The notes beneath the pieces are model-generated. The model worked only from the letters and a program-made list of their open reading frames with translations. It was not told the DNA's origin and did no database searches. From an uncultured Lachnospiraceae bacterium (GTDB taxonomy: Bacteria > Bacillota > Clostridia > Oscillospirales > CAG-272): DNA of 64,000 bases. Positions within the stretch are counted from its first letter, which is position 1, and the number at the start of each line of letters is the position of its first letter. Below are positions 2,509 through 63,845 of the stretch, in pieces. Made by a program: the position numbers and the translations under genes. Location: positions 69,313 to 133,312 of the forward strand of contig CAZXAU010000005.1 of assembly GCA_964638675.1 (NCBI GenBank). The letters run 5' to 3'.

Positions 2509-2523
2509 ATATATTTTTCGGGA

Positions 2524-2541
2524 AGCTTTCTGTAGAAAGCT
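2524..2541. repeat. solo variant of R2 hairpin module a
   Basis: AGCTTTCTGTAGAAAGCT compared with AACTTTCTGTAGAAAGTT in the R2 copies; the change is compensatory. Confidence 0.4.
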
Positions 2542-2650
2542 CATCAGAATAATCGTTGAGATTAAAATTATATATTGTTGCTTATCTGCCTTTAAGTTTG
2601 CGGATGAGCAATACATTCATTACCCATATTGCCTTATATTTTATAACAAA

Positions 2651-2779: not shown

Positions 2780-3658
2780 TTAATCTTCGTCTGCCTTGAT
2801 TCCGGTCTGATTCACAAAAGTTTCATATTCCCAGAACGGGAAGAGAAGCTCATAATCGTTGCCGTCTTTTTCAATCTCGAGAGAATAGTATGGAGCGAAA
2901 TGTACCGTTCCGTCTTTGGTTTCATATATTTTTCCGCTGTTTTTATACGAATCGGGAGATTCGTCTTTCATCCAGCAATCGACTTTGACTTTGGATCTGA
3001 TCTTATGAAGCGCCTTGACCTGTGAGAGTGGGATATCATATCTTTCAGTATTAAAACACAGGCATATTTTACTGTCTTCAATAAAAAAATCTGCTGACAA
3101 AATTGCATAATCGAATAGTTTTTTATGTGTGACCTTCATCTCGCCGTTTTTGATCTCATAGGCGAGGGACAATATATCAAACTCGACCGTTTTTCCGGGT
3201 GTTACTCCAAGCTGGGAGAGAGAGAATGTTTTTATGTTTTCAAGTTTTCTGTCAAGCTCAAGCTTTTCATCACTTTTCAGGAAGCTTTTCTCCTTTTTCA
3301 GTAAGAGGGCGAAGGATGCTATACCTGCAAATGCAAGAACTGCCGCAGCTATGAAAGCTACCGGAGCTTTTTGAAATGCTTCGCCGACAGTTATTTCTGA
3401 GCCTGATATTGCACGTATTGCTGCGGCGATAATAAGAAAGAGAGCAAAGCCGCAGAACATTACAATACCTTTCAGCACTGAAATCGGTTTTGTAAGCTTT
3501 TTCATCTGAGCAAGCAGCTCGTCGGCTGACTTATCAATATAATCTTCGGTTTCTTTATCTACACGTGCGGTTATGAAAGCCTCTCCGTCTGATACGCCTT
3601 CTTCCTGATTCAGTGTAAAGTCGGTTGCAAAAATATTTTTAGCCATAGTTATGTCCAT
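2780..3658 (-). CDS. hypothetical membrane protein (2 TM)
   Basis: The ORF 2780..3754 was trimmed because its first 32 codons lie inside repeat R1-A. The start is ATG 3658 or the in-frame ATG 3646. Confidence 0.6.
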   Translation of the reverse strand: MDITMAKNIFATDFTLNQEEGVSDGEAFITARVDKETEDYIDKSADELLAQMKKLTKPISVLKGIVMFCGFALFLIIAAAIRAISGSEITVGEAFQKAPVAFIAAAVLAFAGIASFALLLKKEKSFLKSDEKLELDRKLENIKTFSLSQLGVTPGKTVEFDILSLAYEIKNGEMKVTHKKLFDYAILSADFFIEDSKICLCFNTERYDIPLSQVKALHKIRSKVKVDCWMKDESPDSYKNSGKIYETKDGTVHFAPYYSLEIEKDGNDYELLFPFWEYETFVNQTGIKADED

Positions 3659-3779
3659 TGCTTTCGCAATGCGAAAGCTTCCTTTCTTTCCGGAATTGGG
3701 GCTGGTTTTGCAACGCCAAATCTCCGCCGTGTAAATGGCAAAGCCACAAAACACTGTCTAAAAAATATATTTTTCAGAC
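3656..3779 (-). repeat. R1 structured repeat, copy A
   Basis: Shares GTCTGAAAA-hairpin / GTTTTGTGGCTTT / GATTTGGCGTTGCAAAACCAGCCCCAATTCC / AGAAAGGAAGCTTTCGC-NNN-GCGAAAGCAATGG with the copies at 9552, 37273, 49215 and 63725. Confidence 0.85.
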
Positions 3780-3872
3780 TTTATATCCCCGTTTTATTTT
3801 TATGTTGACAGGACGTGTGATTTGTTGTAAAATGTTATTATAATAGATCATATTGAACGGAATGGATGTAAA

Positions 3873-8162: not shown

Positions 8163-9554
8163 TTATTTAAGTTCTACAAGACTTGCAGCTGCGATAGACT
8201 GACCGACTCTGCGAAGCATTTCGCTCGGAAGCTCTACACTTACCTGATACTGAGGATAATCTTTTGCAAGAACCTCACGGCAGGTATCAAGCAAGAGGTC
8301 TCCGCCCTTTCCGGATGTAACTCTTCCCATAAGGATGAGGTGCTTGATCTCGTAGAAGTGGGCGTATGTACCGATTGCATGAGCGAGGTAAGATCCGATC
8401 GATGCAAATATCGAGAGGGCATTCTCGTCTCCTTCATTTGCAAGCTTCTGTGCAATTTTGAGCTTTTCAGCAGGTGTAAGTGATTCATCGATCTCAATTC
8501 CTGCTCTAGGTGCAAGACGTATAACGGCATCCTGCGAGAGATACTGCGTGCCGACTCCTATATCGCCTGACCACGGGTCTGCTGAAGCGCCAGGATTCAT
8601 ATCGATAGGAGCAAAAGCAAGCTCATTGAGCATACCGGTGATGTTACCGCTTTCATCTACATATCCGACAGCTTCACTTGTGCCCATTGCAAGTCCCATG
8701 ACCTTGTTGTCCTTGAGATCCATTGCGCCTGCAAGTGCGGTTACGTCTCCGTCATTTGCCACTTCAAAGGGAATGTCTTTTCCGACTGCTGCACATGCAT
8801 TGAGATATATATCCTTTACCTTTGCTTCAAAATCCTCGGGTGATACCGCCTTGAAGAGAGAAGCGAGCATTGTACGGTTATTTACATATATTCCTGCCGA
8901 TGAAATTCCGATAGCATCGACTCTCGGCATCTTCTCTTTTGCCTTGTTCATTGCCATAACGATGTTTTCGAGGTGATAATCGGGGTTCGTGTTGACCTTG
9001 GGAAGCCATACGATCTCTTCGGAATAAATTACTTCTCCGTTGACAACGGCAGAGACCTTCATATCGCTTCCGCCGGCATCAAAACCGATCCTGCAACCGT
9101 CTACAAATCCTCCGACAGACTTCGGAGCGGATTTCGCCGCCGGTCTTTCTTCGTAGGTTGTATTGATTATTTCAAAATCCGATTCATAGACGTTCGACAT
9201 TGTCTTTACATCGAAATCCTGTCTGCCGCCGATCTTGTAAAGCTCCTTGATGCCTTCATAAATTTTTGTGTTTCCGCAGATGACGACCTTGAATCCGCCT
9301 GATGCCCAGAGCATGAATTTTACAATACGCTCAACATAATTAAGATCGTTTTCATAGCTCTCTTCGTTTCCGACGATCTTTGTTTCAAAGACGCTGACAT
9401 TTTCATTTTCACGGTAAACCGCTATTGCAATTTTCTCATTTGCAATTTTTTCGTAAGCGTCGATATAGGCACCCATAGGGATAAACTCCGGCTCAAGAAC
9501 CGGCTTGCAATTGAATTCTGCTTTGATATCGTTGACTTTCATTTTTTTGACCAT
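8163..9554 (-). CDS. ROK-family (sugar kinase-like) protein with about 150-aa N-terminal extension
   Basis: ATPase motifs GFDAGGSDMKVS, ANDGDVTALAG and GLAMGTSEAVG. Either ATG 9554 (inside R1-B) or the in-frame ATG 9542 could be the start. Confidence 0.7.
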   Translation of the reverse strand: MVKKMKVNDIKAEFNCKPVLEPEFIPMGAYIDAYEKIANEKIAIAVYRENENVSVFETKIVGNEESYENDLNYVERIVKFMLWASGGFKVVICGNTKIYEGIKELYKIGGRQDFDVKTMSNVYESDFEIINTTYEERPAAKSAPKSVGGFVDGCRIGFDAGGSDMKVSAVVNGEVIYSEEIVWLPKVNTNPDYHLENIVMAMNKAKEKMPRVDAIGISSAGIYVNNRTMLASLFKAVSPEDFEAKVKDIYLNACAAVGKDIPFEVANDGDVTALAGAMDLKDNKVMGLAMGTSEAVGYVDESGNITGMLNELAFAPIDMNPGASADPWSGDIGVGTQYLSQDAVIRLAPRAGIEIDESLTPAEKLKIAQKLANEGDENALSIFASIGSYLAHAIGTYAHFYEIKHLILMGRVTSGKGGDLLLDTCREVLAKDYPQYQVSVELPSEMLRRVGQSIAAASLVELK

Positions 9555-9680
9555 GGCTTTCGCATTGCGAAAGCTTCCTTTCTTGTCTTGCGGAATTGGG
9601 GCTGGTTTTGCGGAGCAAAATCGCTGTTACTCTAACGGCGAAAGCCACAAAACGCCGTTTGAAAGATTTATCTTTCAAAC
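9552..9680 (-). repeat. R1 structured repeat, copy B
   Basis: See R1-A. This copy has the H1 variant GTTTGAAAGA/TCTTTCAAAC. Confidence 0.85.
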
Positions 9681-9789
9681 TTTTGTCCTTCCCGATAATA
9701 CAATTTTTTACCCCTGCATTATACAACAAAACTATCCTTTTTTCAATACCCAAAGTAAAAAAATCAGTGCATATCTGTAATTATTTGTT

Positions 9790-37228: not shown

Positions 37229-37272
37229 CCTGTTTTCGGATGTAAAATCGAAAAGTTAATTAAGGAGAGAAA

Positions 37273-37416
37273 GTTTGAAAGATAAATCTTTCAAACAGCG
37301 TTTTGTGGCTTTTACCGCCGAAACGAGCCGATTCTTTTCGAATCGGAGGTGATTTTGCTCCGCAAAACCAGCCACAATTACGTAAGAAAGGAAGCTTTCG
37401 CAAAGCGAAAGCCATG
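37273..37416 (+). repeat. R1 structured repeat, copy D (longest; extra CCGATT/AATCGG hairpin)
   Basis: See R1-A. It ends in ATG 37414, which opens a 5-codon uORF overlapping ATG 37428. Confidence 0.85.
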
Positions 37417-37427
37417 GTAATAAAAAA

Positions 37428-38390
37428 ATGACTTTAGATTCTATTCTCGTTTTGTTACAGAATACGTTAGAGCTTGGGCTTATAAGCTCGCTGACTGTCC
37501 TCGCTCTTTTTCTCAGCTATTCGATGCTGAACCTCTGCGATCTGTCGACAGACGGTTGTTATACACTCGGTGCGGCGGTAGGAGCTGTAGTTGCAATGGC
37601 AGGTCATCCCTATCTTGCGATCGTTGCGGCGATGGGAGCAGGAGTTACTTCTGGATTTATCACGGCTTTTCTTCAGACGAGGATGGGAGTGGACAGTCTG
37701 CTTTCGGGAATTATAGTCAATACGGCACTGTATTCGATAGTGATCCTGATAATGAGTGGAAAATCAGATCTCAATATGTTCAGGACAGAAACGATATTCA
37801 CGAGACTGAAGGCGCTTCTTGCCGGAACATTTCTCGAAAAATATTATGTTCTGATCATAGCGATCGTTGCAGTAGTTCTTGTTGTCATATTCCTCACGAT
37901 CTTTCTGCGGACAAAATTGGGCCTTGCGATCAGAGCAACCGGAAACAATCCGAGTATGGCACGCTCGTCATCGATAAATCCTATATTCACAACGACTGTC
38001 GGTCTTTGTATTGCCGGCTCGCTTACCGCTCTTTCGGGCTGTCTTTTCGCTCAGTCTGATAAATCGGTCAACGTCAATCTCGGCTCGGGAATTCTGACTG
38101 TTGCACTTGCATCTCTCCTTATCGGAAATGCATTCACATCCAAGCATAAGATTTTTGTACGGGCGTTGGGCTCGGTACTCGGTGCATTTATTTTCAGACT
38201 TGTATACATGATAGCGCTTCGCTTCAACATGCCTGCAACAATGCTCAAGCTTGTGTCGTCGGTGATCGTGGTAATTGCGGTTTCCGCACCTTATCTCAAG
38301 AAGCAATTCCCGATGTGGAAACGCAGACTGACGCATAATAAACAAATGAAAAAAATCAGGAAGGACGGTGGCGACATATGCTCAGAATAG
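37428..38390 (+). CDS. ABC transporter permease (COG4120 type)
   Basis: Multi-TM protein adjacent to its ATPase, with a 13-nt overlap. Confidence 0.85.
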   Translation: MTLDSILVLLQNTLELGLISSLTVLALFLSYSMLNLCDLSTDGCYTLGAAVGAVVAMAGHPYLAIVAAMGAGVTSGFITAFLQTRMGVDSLLSGIIVNTALYSIVILIMSGKSDLNMFRTETIFTRLKALLAGTFLEKYYVLIIAIVAVVLVVIFLTIFLRTKLGLAIRATGNNPSMARSSSINPIFTTTVGLCIAGSLTALSGCLFAQSDKSVNVNLGSGILTVALASLLIGNAFTSKHKIFVRALGSVLGAFIFRLVYMIALRFNMPATMLKLVSSVIVVIAVSAPYLKKQFPMWKRRLTHNKQMKKIRKDGGDICSE

Positions 38391-41002: not shown

Positions 41003-41225
41003 TTTAATAAAGTCCTTGAGGGAAAGAGGGATGAGGGATTAGTGAAAAGTGATTTAGACGTGTGGGGGAGGGGGCCCACATGCCGGCTACGTTTCGAGCT
41101 ATTATAGTTTCAGCACTATTACTGTGAAGCCTCTATACTATATTTTTTCAATAAAGTCTTTGAAGGGGGAAGGTGTAATTTTCTGTAGAAAATTACACCG
41201 GGAACTTTCTACAGAAAGTTCCCCC
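41003..41225 (+). repeat. R2 modular repeat, copy 1 (module c present twice)
   Basis: Modules AATAAAGTCYTTGARGG, GTGTGGGGG..CCCACATG hairpin, AGTTTCAGCACTATTACTGTGAAGC, GGTGTAATTTTCTGTAGAAAATTACACC and GGGAACTTTCTACAGAAAGTTCCC. Confidence 0.85.
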
Positions 41226-41245
41226 GATTTCTAAATATAGACTAA

Positions 41246-44200
41246 TCAATGATTAATATCCACGAGATAGGTGTTGTCCTGGGTGTAGTAGGCGCTGACG
41301 ACGTCGGCGAGTGCCATTGCGGTGTCAATTGAGGTCATGCAGGGGATGCGCATGTTCATTGCACGGCGGTGAAGCTGTCTGAAATCTCCGACCGAGGAGT
41401 CCATGATCGCACCCGTGTAAACTATGTAATTGATCTTTCCGCTGTCGAGCAGATCATATATGTCATTGTTTTCCCAGACATTGTGTGCGGTCGTGACATC
41501 CATTCCACGGGCACGGATCGCATTTGCGGTGTCGGGCGTTGCGTACAACCTTATACCAAGATCGGTGAATCTTTCGGCGAGCTTGATAGCATCGGAGTGG
41601 TCGTAATCCTCGACCGATATAAGAATGCCCTTTTCTCCGCCTTTGCCTCTTGCGTGAATATCGATTCCGCTTGCCGTAAGTCCCTTGTAAAGTGCTTCGG
41701 TCTTGGTTCTGCCAACGCCGAGAACTTCGCCGGTAGACTTCATTTCAGGTCCCATTATAGAGTTGGCGTCATAGATCTTTTCAAAACTGAAAACCGGAAC
41801 TTTTACGGCATAATATTTAGCGGCAGGGAAGAGACCTTCCTTGTATCCGAGATCGACCAGCTTTTCGCCGAGCATTACACGGCTGGCAAGCTCGATCATC
41901 GGAATTCCGGTGACCTTGCTGATGTATGGCACTGTACGGCTTGCACGTGGATTGACCTCAATTACATACAATTCGCCGTCCTGAACAAGGTACTGAATGT
42001 TGACAATACCCTTTGTTCCGAGACCTCTTGCCATTTTGATCGATATATCGCAGATCTTTTTGGTCAGTGCATCGGTGAGATTGTAAGGCGGATATACGGC
42101 TATCGAGTCGCCTGAGTGTATGCCGGCACGCTCAATATGCTCCATAATTCCGGGAATAAGTACGGTGTCGCCGTCCGAAATGCAGTCGACCTCAAGCTCT
42201 GTTCCTGGCATGTACTTGTCGACAAGAACCGAGTTTGCGATGTTGCCCGAAAGAATGATCTGCATATACTGCCGAACTTCGTCAGCGTTTCTGACAACAC
42301 TCATTCCCTGACCGCCGATGACGTATGACGGACGGAGAAGAACGGGATATCCGAGTATTTTAGCGGCAATCAGTGCTTCCTCGGCGGTGTTGACGGCAAC
42401 AGCCTTCGGGCGTTTCATGCCGATCGATTCGAGAAATGCGTCGAACTTTTCACGGTCTTCGGCAAGGTCGATTCCTTCCGCCGATGTTCCGAGAATTTGT
42501 ATATTGTTTTTGTGGAGAAAATCGACAAGCTTTATAGCAGTCTGTCCGCCGAACGCAACGACAACGCCGAGCGGCTTTTCCACCTTGATGATGTTCATCA
42601 CATCTTCGGGGCAGAGCGGCTCAAAATAGAGACGGTCTGCCGTGTCGTAGTCGGTCGAAACGGTTTCGGGGTTGTTGTTGATAATGACAACGTCGTAGCC
42701 GAGCTTTCGGAGAGTCTGAACGCAGTGAACCGATGAATAGTCGAATTCGATACCCTGTCCGATTCTGATAGGGCCTGAACCGAGTACGATTATGACAGGC
42801 TTGCCCGAGCGTGTGTGGGTTCTTGATTCGCAACAAAGATCGGTGGTCGAATAGAAATAGGGTGTCTGAGCCTCAAATTCTCCGGCGCAGGTGTCAACCA
42901 TTTTGTAGCTGAAATCCATGCTGTAGGGAAGCTCTCCCGATATTCCGGCGATGCGTTTTATTGCAGCATCGGTGTATCCGAAAGCTTTTGCCTTTTTGTA
43001 TATCTCCTCGCTGAGATCTTTTGCAAGGAGCATTTCAAAATCGGCAAGCTTTTTGAGCTTGTATAAAAACCATTCGTCGATCATGGTTATTTTATGTATT
43101 TCATCGACCGATACGCCGTTTTTCAACGCTTCAAAAATCGTGAAAACTCTGCGGTCGTTCTGCTCGTGCAGACGGTCGATAATATTTTTGTCGTTCAGCG
43201 GAGGGCAATTCAGAGTATCAAGCGATATTTCGGCACCTCTGACAGCCTTCATGAGCGCCTGCTCAAAGGTCGGAGCGATCGCCATAACTTCGCCGGTCGC
43301 CTTCATCTGTGTGCCGAGCGTTCTGCTTGAGCCGACAAATTTGTCAAACGGCCACTTGGGGAACTTGACTACAACATAGTCGAGTGCCGGCTCGAAGCAG
43401 GCACAGGTCTTTCCCGTGACATCGTTTTTAATCTCGTCAAGTGTATAGCCGAGAGCTATTTTTGTCGTGACTTTGGCTATCGGATATCCCGTAGCCTTGG
43501 ATGCGAGTGCCGATGATCTTGAAACTCTCGGATTGACTTCGATCACGGCATATTCAAAGCTTTCGGGATCGAGTGCAAATTGGCAGTTGCATCCGCCGAC
43601 AATGCCGAGAGAGGATATTATATCGAGCGATGCCGAACGAAGCATCTGATATTCTTTGTCCGAGAGCGTGAGCGCAGGGGCAACGACCACAGAATCGCCT
43701 GTGTGAACGCCGACAGGGTCGAAATTCTCCATTGAGCATACCGCTATGACATTTCCGATGCTGTCACGCATCGTTTCAAACTCGATCTCTTTCCATCCGG
43801 CAATACTTTTTTCAACGAGGATCTGATTTATCGGTGAAAGCTCAAGTCCGTTTTTGGCTATTTTATCAAATTCTTCTTTGTTCTTTGCAATTCCGCCTCC
43901 CGTTCCTCCGAGAGTGAAGGCAGGGCGGATGATTACCGGATATCCGATATTCTCAGCGATCTTTTCTGCACTTTCGAGATCATATGCGATATCCGAGGGA
44001 ACGATCGGCTGACCTATTTCTTTCATTGTCTGTCTGAAAAGGTCACGGTCTTCGGCTTTATTTATAGCATCTATATCCGAACCGAGCAGACGGACGTTAT
44101 ATTTTTCGAGAATGCCTTCCTTGGCAAGCTGCATTGCAATAGTAAGTCCGCTCTGTCCGCCGAGTCCGGCAAGGATTCCGTCCGGACGCTCTTTTTCTAT

Positions 44201-45660: not shown

Positions 45661-46830
45661 TTAAATTTCGCCTGCAACCTCGGTTATTACCGATATTGCT
45701 TTTTTCAGCACTTCAAAATCTATCGTGAGTGCCGGAAGCAGTCTCACTTTATCTTTTGCACTCAGGCAGAGGACGCCCTTTTCCATGCATTTTTTTATAA
45801 CTTCGCCAACCGGCTTTTCGGTTTTGATTCCGATCATCAGACCCATTCCGCTTACGCCGAGAATGCCTTTTTTATCTTTCAAAGTCTCGAAAACATATTT
45901 TTCTTTTTCTTTGACTTCTTCAAAAAGTTTTTCGTCCATTCTCTTCAGGATACTGAGTGCGGCGGCACAGCAGACCGGATTTCCGCCGAAGGTTGAGCCG
46001 TGGTCGCCGAACGACAATACATTTTCGGCTTTTTCTCCGACAAGTGTAGCACCGAGCGGAAGTCCGCCTGCAAGTCCTTTTGCCGTTGACACGACATCGG
46101 GGGAAAGGTCGTAATTCATATATGCATACAGCTTTCCCGTTCTTCCGTTTCCTGTCTGGACTTCGTCTATCATGAACAGTGCATCATTATCTTTGCACCA
46201 TTTTTCAATCTCTTTTGCGAACTCACATGAGGTCGGAATAACTCCGCCTTCTCCCTGAATCATCTCTATCAGTACTCCGGCCACCGGGGTTTTCGAGTGT
46301 ATCTCGTCGAGCGCTTTTATATCTCCCTGCGCTATGCTTTCAAATCCGGGAGTCAGCGGATTGAACAGCTCATGATAGTGATCCTGTCCTGTTGCCGCAA
46401 GAGTTGTCAGCGTTCTTCCGTGAAAGCTGTTTTTCAGTGTGACTACCGTATATCTGTCTTTTCCGTATTTATCGTATGCGTACTTTCTCGCAAGCTTGAT
46501 CGCACACTCATTGGCCTCCGCACCCGAATTTGAGAAAAACACCTTCCTGAGTCCTGTTTTCTCGCAAAGAAGCTCTGCCAGCTCGGCACACGGGTTGGTA
46601 TAATAGAGGTTCGACATATGCTGTACTTTCGATATCTGCTCAATTATCGCTTCCTGCCATACCTTATCCGAGATCCCGAAGCTTGTGACTCCGATTCCCG
46701 AGCCCATATCGATATATTCTTTTCCGTTTTCATCATAAACAAGCGAACCTTTTCCGCTCACAATATTTATCGGAAAACGGTTGTATGTCCCTAATATATA
46801 CTTTTTATCCTTTTCAAATGTATTACTCAT
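45661..46830 (-). CDS. argD: acetylornithine aminotransferase
   Basis: Class-III aminotransferase with FNSGAEANE, DEVQTGNGRTG and STAKGLAGG (PLP-binding Lys). Confidence 0.9.
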   Translation of the reverse strand: MSNTFEKDKKYILGTYNRFPINIVSGKGSLVYDENGKEYIDMGSGIGVTSFGISDKVWQEAIIEQISKVQHMSNLYYTNPCAELAELLCEKTGLRKVFFSNSGAEANECAIKLARKYAYDKYGKDRYTVVTLKNSFHGRTLTTLAATGQDHYHELFNPLTPGFESIAQGDIKALDEIHSKTPVAGVLIEMIQGEGGVIPTSCEFAKEIEKWCKDNDALFMIDEVQTGNGRTGKLYAYMNYDLSPDVVSTAKGLAGGLPLGATLVGEKAENVLSFGDHGSTFGGNPVCCAAALSILKRMDEKLFEEVKEKEKYVFETLKDKKGILGVSGMGLMIGIKTEKPVGEVIKKCMEKGVLCLSAKDKVRLLPALTIDFEVLKKAISVITEVAGEI

Positions 46831-46865
46831 TTTTGCTCCTTTGGTTAGTTTGCGTTATATATCGT

Positions 46866-47085
46866 GGGAACTTTCTGTAGAAAGTTCCCGGTGTAATTTT
46901 CTACAGAAAATTACACCTTCCCCCTTCAAAGACTTTAATAAAATGGGGAGAATATGGGTGCTTCACAGTAATAGTGCTGAAACTGTAGTTGTTTGATTGG
47001 TAGCCGTCATGTGGGGCCCCTGCCCCACACGGCTGAATTGAGAAATTGAGAAAATGAGAAATTGATAGTGATTATTAACTCTTCA
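46866..47085 (-). repeat. R2 modular repeat, copy 2
   Basis: Same modules as R2-1 in opposite orientation. Hairpin a lies 35 nt upstream of the argD ATG. Confidence 0.85.
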
Positions 47086-47955
47086 CTATTCTCTTTCTCC
47101 TGTGAACATTGTTCCTATGCCTTCGTTTGTGAACAGCTCGAGTAGAATTGAGTGCTGAACTCTTCCGTCGATTATGACGACATTTCTCACGCCCTCTTTG
47201 ATCGCTTCGATACAGCAATCTATCTTCGGGATCATGCCGCCTACGATAATTCCGTCAGCCTTGAGCTTTTCGGCTTCGCTTACGCTCAGCATCGGGATGA
47301 GTGTGGACGGATCGTTCTTATCTTTGAGTACGCCCGCTATATCGGTCATCATTATAAGGCGTTCTGCGCCCAATGCTCCCGCAATAAATGCGGCGGCAGT
47401 ATCGCCGTTGATATTGTATGTGTTGCCTTCGCTGTCACAGCCTATAGTTGAAATTACGGGTATATATCCCATTTCAAGCAGATCTGTCACGAGTGATATA
47501 TTGATCTTGGTGATCTGTCCGACATATCCGAGCCGTGGATCTTTCACTTTGGCTTCAATCAGCATTCCGTCAATGCCCGATATTCCTATCGCTTTACCGC
47601 CATTCTGTGAAAGGAGATTCACGAGTGCCTTATTGACCTTTCCTGCCAGAACCATTTGCACTATATCGACAGTTTCTTTGTCTGTGACACGCAGTCCGTC
47701 GATGAATTCGGGCTTTTTGTTAAGCTTGGACATCATTTCATTGATTTCGGGACCGCCGCCGTGAACAAGCACGACTTTTACACCGAGCGCCGAAAGCAAT
47801 GCGATATCCTGCATGACCTGATTCTTGAGTGATTCGTTTATCATTGCGTTTCCGCCGTACTTAATAACTACTGTCTTTCCTCTGTAGTTATTGATATATG
47901 GAAGTGCCCCTGTAAGGATCTCGGCACGCATATTGTTTGAACACTGATTTTCCAT
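47086..47955 (-). CDS. argB: acetylglutamate kinase
   Basis: VVIKYGGNAM and VLVHGGGP. Confidence 0.9.
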   Translation of the reverse strand: MENQCSNNMRAEILTGALPYINNYRGKTVVIKYGGNAMINESLKNQVMQDIALLSALGVKVVLVHGGGPEINEMMSKLNKKPEFIDGLRVTDKETVDIVQMVLAGKVNKALVNLLSQNGGKAIGISGIDGMLIEAKVKDPRLGYVGQITKINISLVTDLLEMGYIPVISTIGCDSEGNTYNINGDTAAAFIAGALGAERLIMMTDIAGVLKDKNDPSTLIPMLSVSEAEKLKADGIIVGGMIPKIDCCIEAIKEGVRNVVIIDGRVQHSILLELFTNEGIGTMFTGERE

Positions 47956-47988: not shown

Positions 47989-49203
47989 TTATGTGCGGTA
48001 GTCGCCGTTGATCTTGACATAGTCATATGTCAGATCGCAACCCCATGCCATTGCATTTGCTTTTCCGTCTCCGAGTGTGATGATTATTTCGATCTCTTTT
48101 TCAAGGAGGATCTCTTTGGCTTTCTCTTCCGAAAAATCAACTCCTGCACCGTTTTGACATACGGTTATTTCGCCCTTGGGGCTTTTGAATGTCACGCCTA
48201 TTTTGCTGACATCGACATCCGCTCCGCTGTATCCTATGGCACAGAGGACTCGTCCCCAGTTGGCGTCCGCACCGAACATTGCCGCTTTGAATAGCGAAGA
48301 GCAGATCACGCTCTTGGCAACGATCTTCGCATTTTTATCGTCCTTAGCTCCGTATACCGAGCATTCGAGAGTTTTTGTTGCACCCTCTCCGTCGCCTGCA
48401 ATCATTTTGCAGAGTGCTACTGTAACGGTATTGAGAGCTTTCATAAATTCTGCAAAGCTTTCGCCTTCGCATGTGATCTCATTATTTCCTGCCATTCCGT
48501 TTGCAAGCACCGTTACCATATCATTTGTTGATGTATCGCCGTCTACGCTTACCATATTGAATGTATTTGCAATATCGCTTGACAGTGCTTTCTGAAGCAT
48601 CTGAGATGAGATTGCAGCATCTGTTGTGATGAAAACGAGCATTGTTGCCATGTTGGGGTGGATCATTCCGCTTCCTTTGGCGATTCCTCCGATATGGCAG
48701 GTCTTTCCGTCAAGCGTGAATTCGACTGCTACCGATTTTTTTATTGTATCGGTCGTCATGATTCCCTCGTTTGCATCCTCGCTTCCGCTTTCCGAAAGTG
48801 ATGAGACAAGCCCGTCAAGCCCGTTCTTTATTGGTGTAATATCAAACACCTGACCGATAACGCCTGTGGATGCTACAACGATATCATCCTGTGCTATTCC
48901 GAGCTTTTCACTGACAAGACTGCACATCTCCTCGGCTACTTCTATTCCGTTTGCGTTGCATGTATTGGCGTTTCCGCTGTTGCAGATAACAGCCTGTGCC
49001 TTTCCGTTTGCTAAATGTTTCTTTGTAACTGTCAGCGGTGCTCCTTTTACAAGGTTTGTGGTATACACTGCCGCAGCATTTGTGACGCAGTCGCTCACTA
49101 TAAGGGCGAGATCTTTTTTTGTCTTGTTTTTGCGGATTCCGCAGTGTATTCCGCTCGCTTTAAAGCCTTTTGCGGCTGTAACGCCGCCCGATATTATTTT
49201 CAT
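47989..49203 (-). CDS. argJ: bifunctional ornithine acetyltransferase / N-acetylglutamate synthase
   Basis: GVTAAKGFKASG.., self-cleavage region ATMLVFITTDA. Start trimmed to ATG 49203 because the upstream codons lie in R1-C. Confidence 0.9.
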   Translation of the reverse strand: MKIISGGVTAAKGFKASGIHCGIRKNKTKKDLALIVSDCVTNAAAVYTTNLVKGAPLTVTKKHLANGKAQAVICNSGNANTCNANGIEVAEEMCSLVSEKLGIAQDDIVVASTGVIGQVFDITPIKNGLDGLVSSLSESGSEDANEGIMTTDTIKKSVAVEFTLDGKTCHIGGIAKGSGMIHPNMATMLVFITTDAAISSQMLQKALSSDIANTFNMVSVDGDTSTNDMVTVLANGMAGNNEITCEGESFAEFMKALNTVTVALCKMIAGDGEGATKTLECSVYGAKDDKNAKIVAKSVICSSLFKAAMFGADANWGRVLCAIGYSGADVDVSKIGVTFKSPKGEITVCQNGAGVDFSEEKAKEILLEKEIEIIITLGDGKANAMAWGCDLTYDYVKINGDYRT

Positions 49204-49214
49204 TTTATATATTC

Positions 49215-49338
49215 CATGGCTTTCGCATTGCGAAAGCTTCCTTTCTATGTGGAATTGGGGCTGGTTTTGCAGTGCAAAATCGCCGCCGCATCGGTGGCGA
49301 AAGCCACAAAACACTGTCTGAAAATGTATTTTTCAGAC
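49215..49338 (-). repeat. R1 structured repeat, copy C
   Basis: See R1-A. It ends in ATG 49217, which opens the uORF MEYIK* overlapping the argJ ATG. Confidence 0.85.
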
Positions 49339-49356
49339 ATTTTGCCTTTCTTATTT

Positions 49357-51656: not shown

Positions 51657-51696
51657 TTTATTTTACCTCTGTTTAGTTAGTTTGTGTTTTGTACGT

Positions 51697-51866
51697 GGGG
51701 AAACTTTCTGTAGAAAGTTTCCGGTGTAATTTTCTGCAGAAAATTACACCCACCCCTTCAAAGACTTTATAAAAAGGGGGAATTATATAGTGCTTCGCTG
51801 AAATGGTGCTGAAACTGTAATCACTTGCACTATAGCCGTCATGTGGGGCCTCTGCCCCACACGCAT
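51697..51866 (-). repeat. R2 modular repeat, copy 3
   Basis: Same module order as copy 2. Hairpin a lies 40 nt upstream of the argH ATG, followed by the palindrome TTGAATGAT-N8-ATCATTCAA (51880-51905). Confidence 0.85.
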
Positions 51867-52080
51867 AATTTGGGAAATGTTGAATGATAAATTGGCATCA
51901 TTCAATCATTAATCATTCGCTTAATATTTCCGGTTGATGTATACTTTTACATTGTTTCGATTATTTTAAACCCATTTAAATTATTATACACTTATAAGTC
52001 CGTTTTGTCAAGCTATTTTCAGAAAAAAATGAAAAATATTCGCATATTTTTCATTTTATTCATTTAAATAATGAATATAT

Positions 52081-53064
52081 TCATATCAATCCGAATTCGG
52101 ACATAACATATTCGGAAAGCATATCGCCTTCGGTACAATTTAACGCTTTCAGCCTGCCTGAAATGCTTTTTTTATCGAATGGGCAGAGGATGAGTGAGTT
52201 GTCTATTTTTTCGGCAAGACTTTCGTCATTTGCATCTGTAAATGTTTTGGAGGAAATAATTTTCCACTCTTTGACGCACAGCAGGATCTGCACGCATCCG
52301 AAGGGCAGACGGCAATCTATCTGTTCATTGAATTCGGGTGTTTCTCCGAATATCCACTCATCCGAGTGCTGTTTTTCTTTATATTTTGCGATTTTTGCAA
52401 TATCGCTTTCGCCGAAAGAAATTCTTTCAAAATCGCCGTATATTCTTTTGTAATTATCGGGGATCACTTCAAGCAGTGAACAGACCGATACATCCGGGTT
52501 TATATCGCTGAGGTTACACACTCTCGATCTCACCGATTCAACCCCTTTTGCCTTCATTTTGCGTGGGTCGACCGTCAGATATTTCTGAAGCTTTGACAGA
52601 TCAGATGACACGAGCAGTGTTCCGTGATGGAGCTTTCCGTTTTCTCTTGAGCAATAGGCATTTCCCGAAAATTTTCTTCCGTTAGAGCTAGACAGCAGAT
52701 CGTTTCTGCCTGAGAATTCGCAGGGAATTCCGAGTGATGAAACTGTTTCGAGAATAAAAGAATGAAATTTTTCTTTATCAAATCTGTTTTTTCCTGCAAT
52801 AAATGAAAAATTCAGATTCCCGCTGTCGTGATAGACCGCACCGCCTCCGCTGAAACGGCGTACAAGTTCGACATCGTCACGCTTCATGGCTTCAAGATCG
52901 CATTCTTTTCTCGGGTTCTGATTCTTTCCGATAATTACTGCGTTTTTATTGATATAGAAATAAAGTATAAGCTCGTCCTGCTTTACGCTGTCAAGAAAAA
53001 AATCGTCAAGAGCGAGGTTGTCATATCCGCTCTTCGAGTCCGAAATATACAGATAATTTTTCAT
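52081..53064 (-). CDS. lplA: lipoate-protein ligase A
   Basis: RRFSGGGAVYHDSGNLNFSF motif. Start trimmed to ATG 53064. Confidence 0.85.
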   Translation of the reverse strand: MKNYLYISDSKSGYDNLALDDFFLDSVKQDELILYFYINKNAVIIGKNQNPRKECDLEAMKRDDVELVRRFSGGGAVYHDSGNLNFSFIAGKNRFDKEKFHSFILETVSSLGIPCEFSGRNDLLSSSNGRKFSGNAYCSRENGKLHHGTLLVSSDLSKLQKYLTVDPRKMKAKGVESVRSRVCNLSDINPDVSVCSLLEVIPDNYKRIYGDFERISFGESDIAKIAKYKEKQHSDEWIFGETPEFNEQIDCRLPFGCVQILLCVKEWKIISSKTFTDANDESLAEKIDNSLILCPFDKKSISGRLKALNCTEGDMLSEYVMSEFGLI

Positions 53065-54362: not shown

Positions 54363-54373
54363 TAGATTTTTTT

Positions 54374-54545
54374 AGTGAAGAGTGAAGAGTGAATAAGTTT
54401 TGCGTGTGGGGGAGGGGCCCCACATGACGGCTGCAATTCAAGCATTTACAGATTCAGCACTGTTTTCACGAAGCATCATATGATCCCCCCATTTAATAAA
54501 GTCTTTGAAAGGGTTCGGGGAAACTTTCTACAGAAAGTTTCCCCG
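54374..54545 (+). repeat. R2 modular repeat, copy 4 (lacks module b)
   Basis: AGTGAAGAGTGAAGAGTGAA tail, GTGTGGGGGAGGGGCCCCACATGACGGC, AATAAAGTCTTTGAAAGG and GGGGAAACTTTCTACAGAAAGTTTCCCC. It ends 13 nt before ATG 54559. Confidence 0.85.
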
Positions 54546-54558
54546 AGAAAAAAACAAA

Positions 54559-61990: not shown

Positions 61991-62232
61991 AGCCAGCGTC
62001 CCCGGAGTGGTTATGTTCAAACAAACACTTCCATAAATCGTATTTGGCGCCGCGAAGCGGATATAATCGGCAAATACATATCTTGTGTTTATTATAACAT
62101 AAAGCCAACGAAGTTGGTGTCCCCGAAGGGGTTATGTTCAAACAAACACTTCCATAAATCGTATTTGGCGCCGCGAAGCGGATATAATCGGCAAATACAT
62201 ATCTTGTGTTTATTATAACATATTATTGCCGT
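61991..62232. repeat. tandem duplication, units of 112 and 121 bp plus a partial third
   Basis: Units start with TATAACATAAAGCC at 61991, 62103 and 62224. The units are identical except for one stem-loop segment that carries a 9-nt indel. Confidence 0.9.
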
Positions 62233-63724: not shown

Positions 63725-63845
63725 GTCTGAAAAAAATTCAGACGCCGTTTTGTGACTTTCGCCGCCTGAAAGGCAGCGATTTTGCTTCGCAAAACCAGCC
63801 CCAACTCCGGGGAGAAAGGAAGCTTTCGCACAAGCGAAAGCAATG
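63725..63845 (+). repeat. R1 structured repeat, copy E
   Basis: It fills the whole yqfC-yqfD spacer, starting 3 nt after the yqfC stop and ending in ATG 63843. Confidence 0.85.

Follow-up and report, generated by a model that had tools for sequence, protein, structure and literature searches.

Small interspersed repeats are well known from Proteobacteria and streptococci, and are hardly described in the uncultured Clostridia, the dominant bacteria of gut and rumen communities. Among the systems closest to the case considered here, the mycobacterial interspersed repetitive units (MIRUs) occupy operon spacers in the same orientation as the operon and near the start of the next gene; they consist of 40-100 bp direct-repeat units and contain small open reading frames (ORFs) that overlap the flanking stop and start codons. 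The BOX elements of Streptococcus pneumoniae and the BOX-type elements of S. suis have been described by Croucher et al. (2011, PMC3049150). Repetitive extragenic palindromic (REP) elements are defined by GTAG tagging, i.e. by a palindrome headed by the tetranucleotide GTAG, and a 2013 survey reported GTAG REPs from Proteobacteria, Cyanobacteria, Chloroflexi and the Planctomycetes-Verrucomicrobia-Chlamydiae (PVC) group, and none from Firmicutes (PMC3733652). Group 1 of the REP-associated tyrosine transposases (RAYTs) has been noted in Clostridia (PMC5581495), and an intrastrand triplex has been shown in vitro for the TM_ECO/BoxC/PIT elements of E. coli (PMC4666352). The repeat analyzed here, R2, is represented by four copies in the arginine region of a 64,000-nucleotide stretch of an uncultured Lachnospiraceae genome (the window; C5:69313-133312 of the host assembly).

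R2 is best read as a previously undescribed composite interspersed repeat, akin to the BOX, REP and MIRU elements. The evidence leans towards a lineage-specific, non-coding modular repeat in which a REP-like hairpin (module e) has been fused to a genus-wide pair of hairpins (modules c and a), and which is selfish-like in character and carried in mRNAs.

Census and anatomy of the R2 family

The host assembly comprises 2.33 Mb in 32 contigs with 42% GC; window positions are C5 positions minus 69312. Copies of R2 were collected by BLASTN followed by three rounds of nhmmer over the whole genome, and the resulting 112 hits were collapsed to 64 non-overlapping loci, 43 of which are near full length; about zero matches are expected by chance. 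An earlier note on the window had described a BOX-like interspersed repeat, rich in hairpins and built of modules of which some are optional, and had named a genome-wide census in advance as the way to check it. That description holds, and with 60 loci outside the four window copies, the repeat is not confined to the window. The unit is about 200 bases long and non-coding, and the family fills approximately 0.5% of the 2.3-Mb genome. A coding role was rejected because in 31 of 42 long copies none of the three forward frames is open, leaving 11 of 42 that are open in any. No Rfam match was found at E<=1 across 22 kb, and the element alone returned only noise (eukaryotic microRNA and small nucleolar RNA models far below their gathering scores).

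"Forward" is used here for the direction in which most R2 copies face a gene start. In that direction, a unit comprises an optional array of (GTGAARA)n heptamers, hairpin e with a following CTAC, spacer d, hairpin c, an optional hairpin b, hairpin a and a tail, after which come a Shine-Dalgarno sequence and a start codon. The consensus begins with 12 weakly conserved nucleotides, about TTAnATTCAC, ahead of hairpin e, which itself has the forward consensus CCGTGTGGGG-nAGG-GGCCCCACATGnCGG followed by CTACAG. After e, 37 copies retain the sequence CGGCTACAG. On the reverse strand, module e becomes CTGTAG-CCGTCATGTGGGGC-CCCT-GCCCCACACGG, a GC-rich palindrome headed by GTAG, with a stem of 9-12 bp, a bulge, a 4-nt loop and G.T pairs. 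Spacer d, between e and c, is variable. Hairpin c (CCCCTT-AATAAAGTCTTTG-AAGGGG) contains the most conserved part of R2, the loop AATAAAGTCTTTGA, which is nearly invariant among copies that differ elsewhere by 15-28%. Hairpin a has the form GGGGAACTTTC-TACA-GAAAGTTCCCC, and the palindromes of R2 share the core CTTTCTnnAGAAAG. The A/C-rich 3' tail is CGAnnAnAAACGCAAACTAACT, with the Shine-Dalgarno sequence 2-25 nt further on.

Modules e-d-c and a-tail are constant, whereas b (which occurs 0 or 1 times) and f are optional. Module f had been taken for a tail; it is in fact the 5' module of heptamers. Arrays of the GTGAARA heptamer are found in about ten copies, 5-49 nt upstream of e, and all clear arrays in the genome sit upstream of e on the same strand. 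The spacer that the earlier note had seen in common between copies 2 and 3 is indeed shared, but is not specific to them, being the 3' tail of the whole family. This tail was rejected as an independent motif because only a few solitary tails exist in the genome. R2 has no terminal inverted repeats, since TTCACCGTGTGGGG at its 5' end and AAACGCAAACTAACT at its 3' end are not inverted with respect to each other. Departures from the single-unit arrangement include one locus with three tandem a-type hairpins and a tandem array at C6:92992-93544, in which three head-to-tail units have an assembly gap of Ns in between; such tandem arrays probably break short-read assemblies.

Hairpin pairing was counted on an alignment guided by the hidden Markov model (HMM), using hand-defined local hairpins. 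Local counts were used because the similarity of a and b gave misleading long-range pairings both in RNAalifold (on a MAFFT alignment) and in folding of the HMM consensus. By these counts, hairpins e, c, b and a stay paired via double changes. In the b and a columns, GC, TA and AT pair types are exchanged with 42-49 of 49 copies still paired, and hairpin e has a conserved G.U pair. The palindromes had earlier been put forward as possible sites of protein binding; their compensatory changes are the behavior of hairpins and speak against fixed protein operators. On the sense strand, G.U-type pairs outnumber C.A-type pairs by 61 to 10 in e and by 56 to 20 in c, and this excess points, weakly, to folding of the forward strand rather than the other. 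In the predicted fold of sense RNA from copy 2 (the argB-argD junction), hairpins e, c, b and a all form and the tail is unpaired (z = -6.5), with the Shine-Dalgarno GAG and the start codon paired, in the minimum-free-energy structure, to a far-upstream flank outside the element. The antisense strand of this copy folds as well as the sense strand. No R2 hairpin is directly followed by a T run in the sense direction, as an intrinsic terminator would be. Read antisense, hairpin a precedes GGTGTAATTT, and this arrangement was scored as terminator-like by a scan. Hairpin e was rejected as an antisense terminator because an A run lies 5' of it in only about one quarter of copies.

Placement in the genome and history in related species

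Placement was judged against simple gene calls made with the longest ORFs first. Classified by their flanks, 39 of the 64 loci lie in sense orientation between co-directional genes, eight are antisense to both neighbors, nine are in convergent spacers and eight in divergent ones. The spacer classes themselves (47 unidirectional, 9 convergent, 8 divergent) match the genome baseline (chi-square p=0.88), and within same-direction junctions the preference for sense is strong (39 versus 8, p=5.5e-6). By GC skew, 35 loci are on the leading and 29 on the lagging strand (p=0.53), and orientation set by replication was rejected on this count. Since the same-direction bias is 39:8 while the GC-skew split is even, the orientation of R2 is tied to transcription rather than to replication. 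At 43-45 loci a Shine-Dalgarno sequence and start codon follow 10-40 nt past the tail, an intercistronic or leader position that agrees with the closeness to start codons reported earlier for the window copies.

The genes downstream are functionally unrelated housekeeping genes, including argH, argD, gyrB, dnaE, dnaB, valS, asnS, gltX, prfA, der, relA, ruvA, thyA and ilvB. A regulon or a riboswitch-like leader was rejected for this reason, and R2 is not specific to arginine genes, as the presence of gyrB, dnaE, dnaB, valS, prfA, relA and thyA in this list shows. No sigma-70-like promoter is conserved inside R2: of the recurrent candidates, the best is weak and was seen in 12 of 43 copies, and a strong promoter-like site occurs in just one of 42 long copies (copy 1), on the opposite strand. 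An internal sigma-70 promoter was rejected on these grounds. Five loci, including argH, have promoters that match 11-12 of 12 consensus positions and start 76-176 nt upstream of e. About 22 copies lie within 60 nt of the upstream co-oriented gene, leaving no room for a promoter or terminator in the junction. Because a copy thus either follows a consensus promoter, as several do, or fills a short operon junction, R2 should be co-transcribed with its neighbors.

The long form of R2 was not found in 40 relatives searched by BLAST, nor in 400 same-family genomes searched with the c pattern; module c, which occurs 33 times in the host genome, gave 0-1 occurrences in each of the 400. A pattern joining e and c gave only six hits in public genome contigs, all attributable to chance and in unrelated phyla. 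IMG/VR gave one match, to module c alone and judged to be chance, and phage and plasmid collections gave none. No R2 was present in 85 related loci (80 metagenome contigs, 710 kb in all) retrieved via ArgD, at no more than 71% identity, and an exact look-up of the ArgB protein returned no record. The two other species of the host genus, G001 and G002, are distant, with approximately 60% ArgD identity. A looser pattern for the c-a core gave 7 matches in G001, 14 in G002 and one in another genus. As in the host, the core in these relatives is in sense orientation, 20-40 nt ahead of start codons, and its variants are species-specific: AAAGTTTTTGA replaces AAAGTCTTTGA, and the loop also differs. 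Module e, by contrast, was found in the host genome only, and not in G001 or G002. Because all copies of one species share its diagnostic bases, either copies are homogenized by conversion or sites are re-used.

The c-a element is common to three of 11 orthologous genes tested (argH and argF in G001, gyrB in G002; p=0.002), and in each of these the relative bears the short form where the host has the long one. The argB-argD junction is only 0-40 nt long in three relatives (G001, G002, G005), and is filled by R2 only in the host; conversely, the yebC junction contains the repeat in G002 and is empty in the host. That each junction is filled in one species and short or empty in others argues for insertion at both. 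The argF copies of the host and G001 differ in orientation and gene context. In G001 (L140, G001:C57:1-980), the order is argD-[c-a]-argF without carAB, whereas the host has carA and carB between argD and argF. Since the c-a element lies at the argD-argF join of G001, the rearrangement point coincides with the repeat.

Several other arrangements were seen in these relatives. In G001 (L138, G001:C47), a c-a element separates a leader that resembles an S-adenosylmethionine (SAM) riboswitch, with its terminator, from the Shine-Dalgarno sequence and start codon of metK, which puts the repeat between a riboswitch and its target gene. A tandem array of the repeat, with three 107-nt units, is present in G002 (L125, G002:C5:834-1088). 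In G004 (L033), from another genus of the family, the argB-argD junction has a different insertion of approximately 280 nt, framed by inverted arrays of the octamer GTGCAAAG; these arrays are reminiscent of the GTGAARA arrays of R2.

G002 has an intact 162-aa RAYT-like ORF with an HVH motif (L153 1315-1803; G002:C37), for which NCBIfam gave NF047646, "REP-associated tyrosine transposase", as the best match (E=1e-17). A CTGTAG palindrome lies about 100 nt downstream of this ORF, and G001 has CTGTAG-headed palindromes of its own around its c-a elements. A REP-like hairpin, GGACGACCGATGGTCGCCCCTAC, was also observed within the G002 coding sequence. At C7:95600-95970 the host retains a decayed homologue, in which the N-terminal part is 68% identical to the G002 protein; it has a stop codon and a frameshift, HIY stands in place of the HUH motif, and the catalytic C-terminal part has been lost. 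The sole other Y1 transposase detected in the host by a PF01797 search is an IS200-type tnpA with an internal stop or frameshift (C2:117077-117432), whose flanking hairpins bear no relation to those of R2. An origin from the IS200/IS605 group was rejected, there being a single frameshifted IS200 with unrelated end hairpins and no TnpB. None of the 64 loci has e as an inverted doublet; each R2 unit contains one e.

The copies in the arginine region

The window contains four R2 copies in 13.5 kb of its arginine region, above the average density of the family (Poisson p=6e-4). NCBIfam identifies argH, argC, argJ, argB, argD, carA, carB and argF in the window, confirming the gene identities behind the order argH-argC-argJ-argB-argD-carA-carB-argF given in the earlier note. 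The four copies and their modules a-e were likewise present as it had described, and ORFs do extend into R2 copies. Copy 2 (46843..47038 by nhmmer bounds, minus strand) is located in the argB-argD junction, sense to the operon. In plus-strand coordinates, its tail is at 46840-46864, hairpin a at 46866-46889, b at 46890-46917 and the c core at about 46923-46943; spacer d follows, and then GTAG (47000-47003) and the e palindrome (47004-47032). Its 5' flank (47039..47088, minus strand) consists of an AT-rich spacer and one f-type unit, TAGTGAAGAG, overlapping the argB stop codon TAG (47086-47088). Directly after the tail, the argD translation start (46828..46842, minus strand) comprises the Shine-Dalgarno sequence GGAG (46836-46839) and the start codon (46830-46828).

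Copy 1 (41052..41247, plus strand) is antisense to carB and argF, with e at 41058-41090, c at 41150-41169, b at 41172-41199 and a at 41200-41223; its tail overlaps the carB stop codon (41246-41248). The second c module reported for this copy is present at 41003-41022 (within 41003..41051, plus strand), adjoining the argF ribosome-binding site and followed by a degenerate, purine-rich, f-like stretch. Read in the operon direction, copy 1 presents hairpin a and then a T-rich stretch, scored as terminator-like in the scan. Inside this flipped copy, a promoter-like sequence TTCACA-16-TATAAT (11/12; 41101..41128, minus strand) is directed at argF and is unique among the 42 long copies; it may be a compensation specific to this copy.

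Copy 3 (51674..51870, minus strand) is in the argH leader, with a at 51699-51722, b at 51723-51750 and CTATAG with the e palindrome at 51830-51863. An exact consensus promoter, TTGACA-17-TATAAT, is found 113 nt upstream (51983..52011, minus strand), which places copy 3 in the 5' untranslated leader of the arg operon. Around this promoter (51880-52110, minus strand), several TGAAT/ATTCA inverted repeats were noted, e.g. ATGAATATATTCAT and TTGAATGAT...ATCATTCAA; from their sequence these look like candidate ArgR (ARG-box) half-sites for the argH-argC-argJ-argB-argD operon. Copy 4 (54397..54548, plus strand) lacks b, as reported, and has e at 54402-54434, c at 54496-54514 and a at 54517-54544. 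It is preceded by an f module of heptamer repeats, TAGTGAAGAGTGAAGAGTGAA (54373..54393, plus strand), and followed by the start codon (54559) of a 379-aa membrane protein. This protein, earlier designated "M50-like", carries an HEVGH motif and gave no NCBIfam hit, so that the name is provisional. The solo a/b-type hairpin, also noted before, exists at 2520..2543 (plus strand; GGGAAGCTTTCTGTAGAAAGCTCA); its stem has 7 bp, and it lies 12 nt past the stop codon of the ORF at 1447-2508.

The copies of the arginine region are best read as ordinary members of the family, and not as an arginine-specific control device. Their link with the arginine cluster is partly incidental, given the genome-wide family, and partly old, the core being present before argH and argF in a sister species. 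Two further kinds of repeat were observed in the window. R1, unrelated to R2 in sequence and hairpins, has copies at 3644-3800, 9540-9691, 37251-37431, 49200-49350 and 63737-63830, one of which separates argC from argJ in the operon that also holds R2. At 61998-62222 there are two 104-nt direct repeats, 98% identical, with a spacing of 121 nt.

Competing explanations and known repeat systems

In the favored account, module e (GTAG-headed on the opposite strand) and the c-a hairpin pair would be two older pieces that were joined in the host species, and the composite, with its optional heptamers, optional b and 3' tail, would have multiplied there to about 64 loci. R2 is or was, on this account, mobile DNA, the e part probably having been handled by a RAYT-type tyrosine transposase that has since decayed in the host, and copies may have been kept alike by gene conversion or re-insertion. 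It would persist almost only in transcribed spacers (operon junctions and 5' leaders), mostly in sense orientation and with the tail directly upstream of the Shine-Dalgarno sequence. In an mRNA, a sense copy would form a stack of non-terminating hairpins that leaves the ribosome-binding site unpaired and is therefore tolerated, and which might also hinder degradation from the 5' side; antisense copies, with U-rich stretches after their hairpins, would be selected against.

Several observations weigh against this account. The mobility of R2, its exact ends and its target site are presumptive, the nearest metagenome relatives having at most 71% ArgD identity. R2 lacks terminal inverted repeats, and no clear target-site duplication was seen in 43 aligned flanks, a weak test given the lack of same-species empty sites. 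The G002 RAYT-like ORF scores 64 bits, below the NCBIfam cut-off of 80, and the host assembly has no intact RAYT, the decayed one not being flanked by e. Co-transcription and any effect on the mRNA, such as the segmenting of its stability that the earlier note suggested after REP/BIME-like elements, are deduced only from predicted promoters and gene spacing. The tail also abuts convergent neighbors, with seven of seven full-tail copies lying no more than 5 nt from the neighbor's stop codon, a placement for which this account offers no reason. Finally, the near-invariance of the c loop amid 15-28% divergence could mean that R2 has a host function at each copy.

This last point leads to an unlikely, though not outlandish, alternative, in which R2 serves the host as a leader module: its 5' hairpins would protect the processed downstream mRNA and its A/C-rich tail would be a ribosome standby site, making it an expression-boosting or insulating cassette. 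The sense bias and the fixed position beside the Shine-Dalgarno sequence fit such a role, as do the unpaired tail of the predicted fold (the Shine-Dalgarno sequence being partly paired, with distant flank), the placement before essential, highly used genes such as gyrB, dnaE, valS and prfA, and the retention of c-a upstream of argH and gyrB in two species. However, eight of the 11 orthologous genes in the relatives lack the element, the argB-argD junction of relatives functions without R2, and 17 loci face no gene start; c could equally be conserved because copying requires it. Placement directly upstream of genes and the shared palindrome core have also been considered as signs of a mobile promoter or operator cassette, in which a and b would bind a global regulator (the b half-sites AATTTTC/GAAAATT resemble what is presumably the CodY box) or a would carry a -35 element of the extracytoplasmic function (ECF) type, GGAACTTT. 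This is very improbable: the weak internal candidate and the single, oppositely directed strong site do not amount to a conserved promoter, both palindrome halves change together, as hairpins do and unlike the operator of one regulator, and the downstream genes form no regulon. In addition, about 22 copies are in short operon junctions and others are behind consensus promoters of their own.

A further possibility is that the c-a core acts at the level of DNA, with mirror purine tracts folding into an intrastrand triplex whose function or selfish advantage would concern replication or recombination and not RNA. The layout GAAGGGG-N3-GGGGAAC...GTTCCCC, in which the purine tracts ending c and beginning a mirror each other across a 3-nt linker, suggests this, and an R-N3-R arrangement, its second loop of 3 nt, is also that of TM_ECO (PMC4666352). 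Tract lengths (6-9 nt) are matched within units of four genomes; over 18 distinct unit types, permutation gave p=0.0004 for length and p=0.003 for mirror identity, although the units are mutually related and these p-values overstate the signal. Between species, a C-to-T change in c goes with a C-to-T change in the hairpin arm. Yet the tracts are short, with a mirror identity of about 75% and poor matches in some units, conventional pairing with the upstream CCCCTT is also open to the purine tract of c, and the bias toward the direction of transcription is left unexplained. TM_ECO itself shows neither strand bias nor, in vivo, a stable triplex (PMC4666352), and the triplex explanation is decidedly doubtful. 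A combined version, also quite improbable, would see R2 as the trace of a REP/RAYT-type system of gut or rumen Clostridia: a GTAG palindrome fused to a genus-wide mirror-repeat element, whose purine tracts would stay matched in length because one strand folds into a triplex, and spread and homogenized in each species just upstream of ribosome-binding sites. If true, it would connect translation-start regions with a domesticated transposase and with a non-B structure of DNA.

If the RAYT-like enzyme of the sister species handles the GTAG hairpin, the REP/RAYT partnership would be extended to Firmicutes; if the sense-only placement adjacent to ribosome-binding sites affects mRNA processing or translation, R2 would represent a widespread, unannotated layer of gene-expression architecture. 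In practical terms, R2 sits in the leaders and junctions of essential genes, makes gene callers extend ORFs and probably breaks assemblies, and its copies in the arg cluster should not be annotated as arginine-specific regulators.

Among described systems, MITEs (miniature inverted-repeat transposable elements) differ from R2, which has no terminal inverted repeats and, within the limits of the flank test given above, no target duplication. The BoxC/PIT/TM_ECO elements resemble it in combining a hairpin with a third tract that mirrors one arm, in R2 at about 75% identity, across a 3-nt loop, and in being intergenic, conserved and without a known transposase. In R2, however, the third tract is 5' of the hairpin and not 3', the tracts are 6-9 nt long and imperfect, and the hairpin has an extra, non-purine inner stem; TM_ECO is also without the orientation bias. 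The MIRUs are matched by the sense placement in same-direction junctions, but R2 is built of hairpins and, as its closed forward frames indicate, does not carry the small ORFs of a MIRU.

The resemblance to GTAG REPs is in module e, with its GC-rich 9-12-bp stem, bulge, 4-nt loop, GTAG head and G.T pairs (Di Nocera et al. 2013, PMC3733652). One congeneric species has a RAYT-like gene beside a CTGTAG palindrome, and the decayed RAYT of the host recalls what is seen in genomes after loss of the REPtron (Bertels et al. 2017, PMC5581495). On the other hand, e is just one part of a 200-nt unit and never forms the doublet of a REPIN, the host has no intact, e-flanked RAYT, and R2 does not avoid divergent spacers, whereas REPs are enriched in unidirectional and convergent spacers downstream of genes. 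Only module e has REP anatomy; R2 as a whole is set apart from REPs by the absence of doublets, by the lack of their spacer preference and by the missing flanking RAYT.

Comparison with BOX is by architecture and not by sequence, in which no relationship is expected, the host of R2 belonging to a distant lineage of Clostridia. R2 differs in having neither terminal inverted repeats nor an insertion sequence (IS) partner with similar ends, in a module b that is present 0 or 1 times and not in long tandem arrays, and in its strong sense bias, with a fixed 3' tail beside the ribosome-binding site. What the two have in common are fixed end modules with optional internal ones, a length of about 100-300 nt, an intergenic, stem-loop-rich character, transcription with neighboring genes (predicted for R2), a copy number in the tens to hundreds within a Gram-positive genome of some 2 Mb, and species-specific variants. 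Although the lack of terminal inverted repeats places R2 outside the BOX family, BOX-like is an apt analogy for it.

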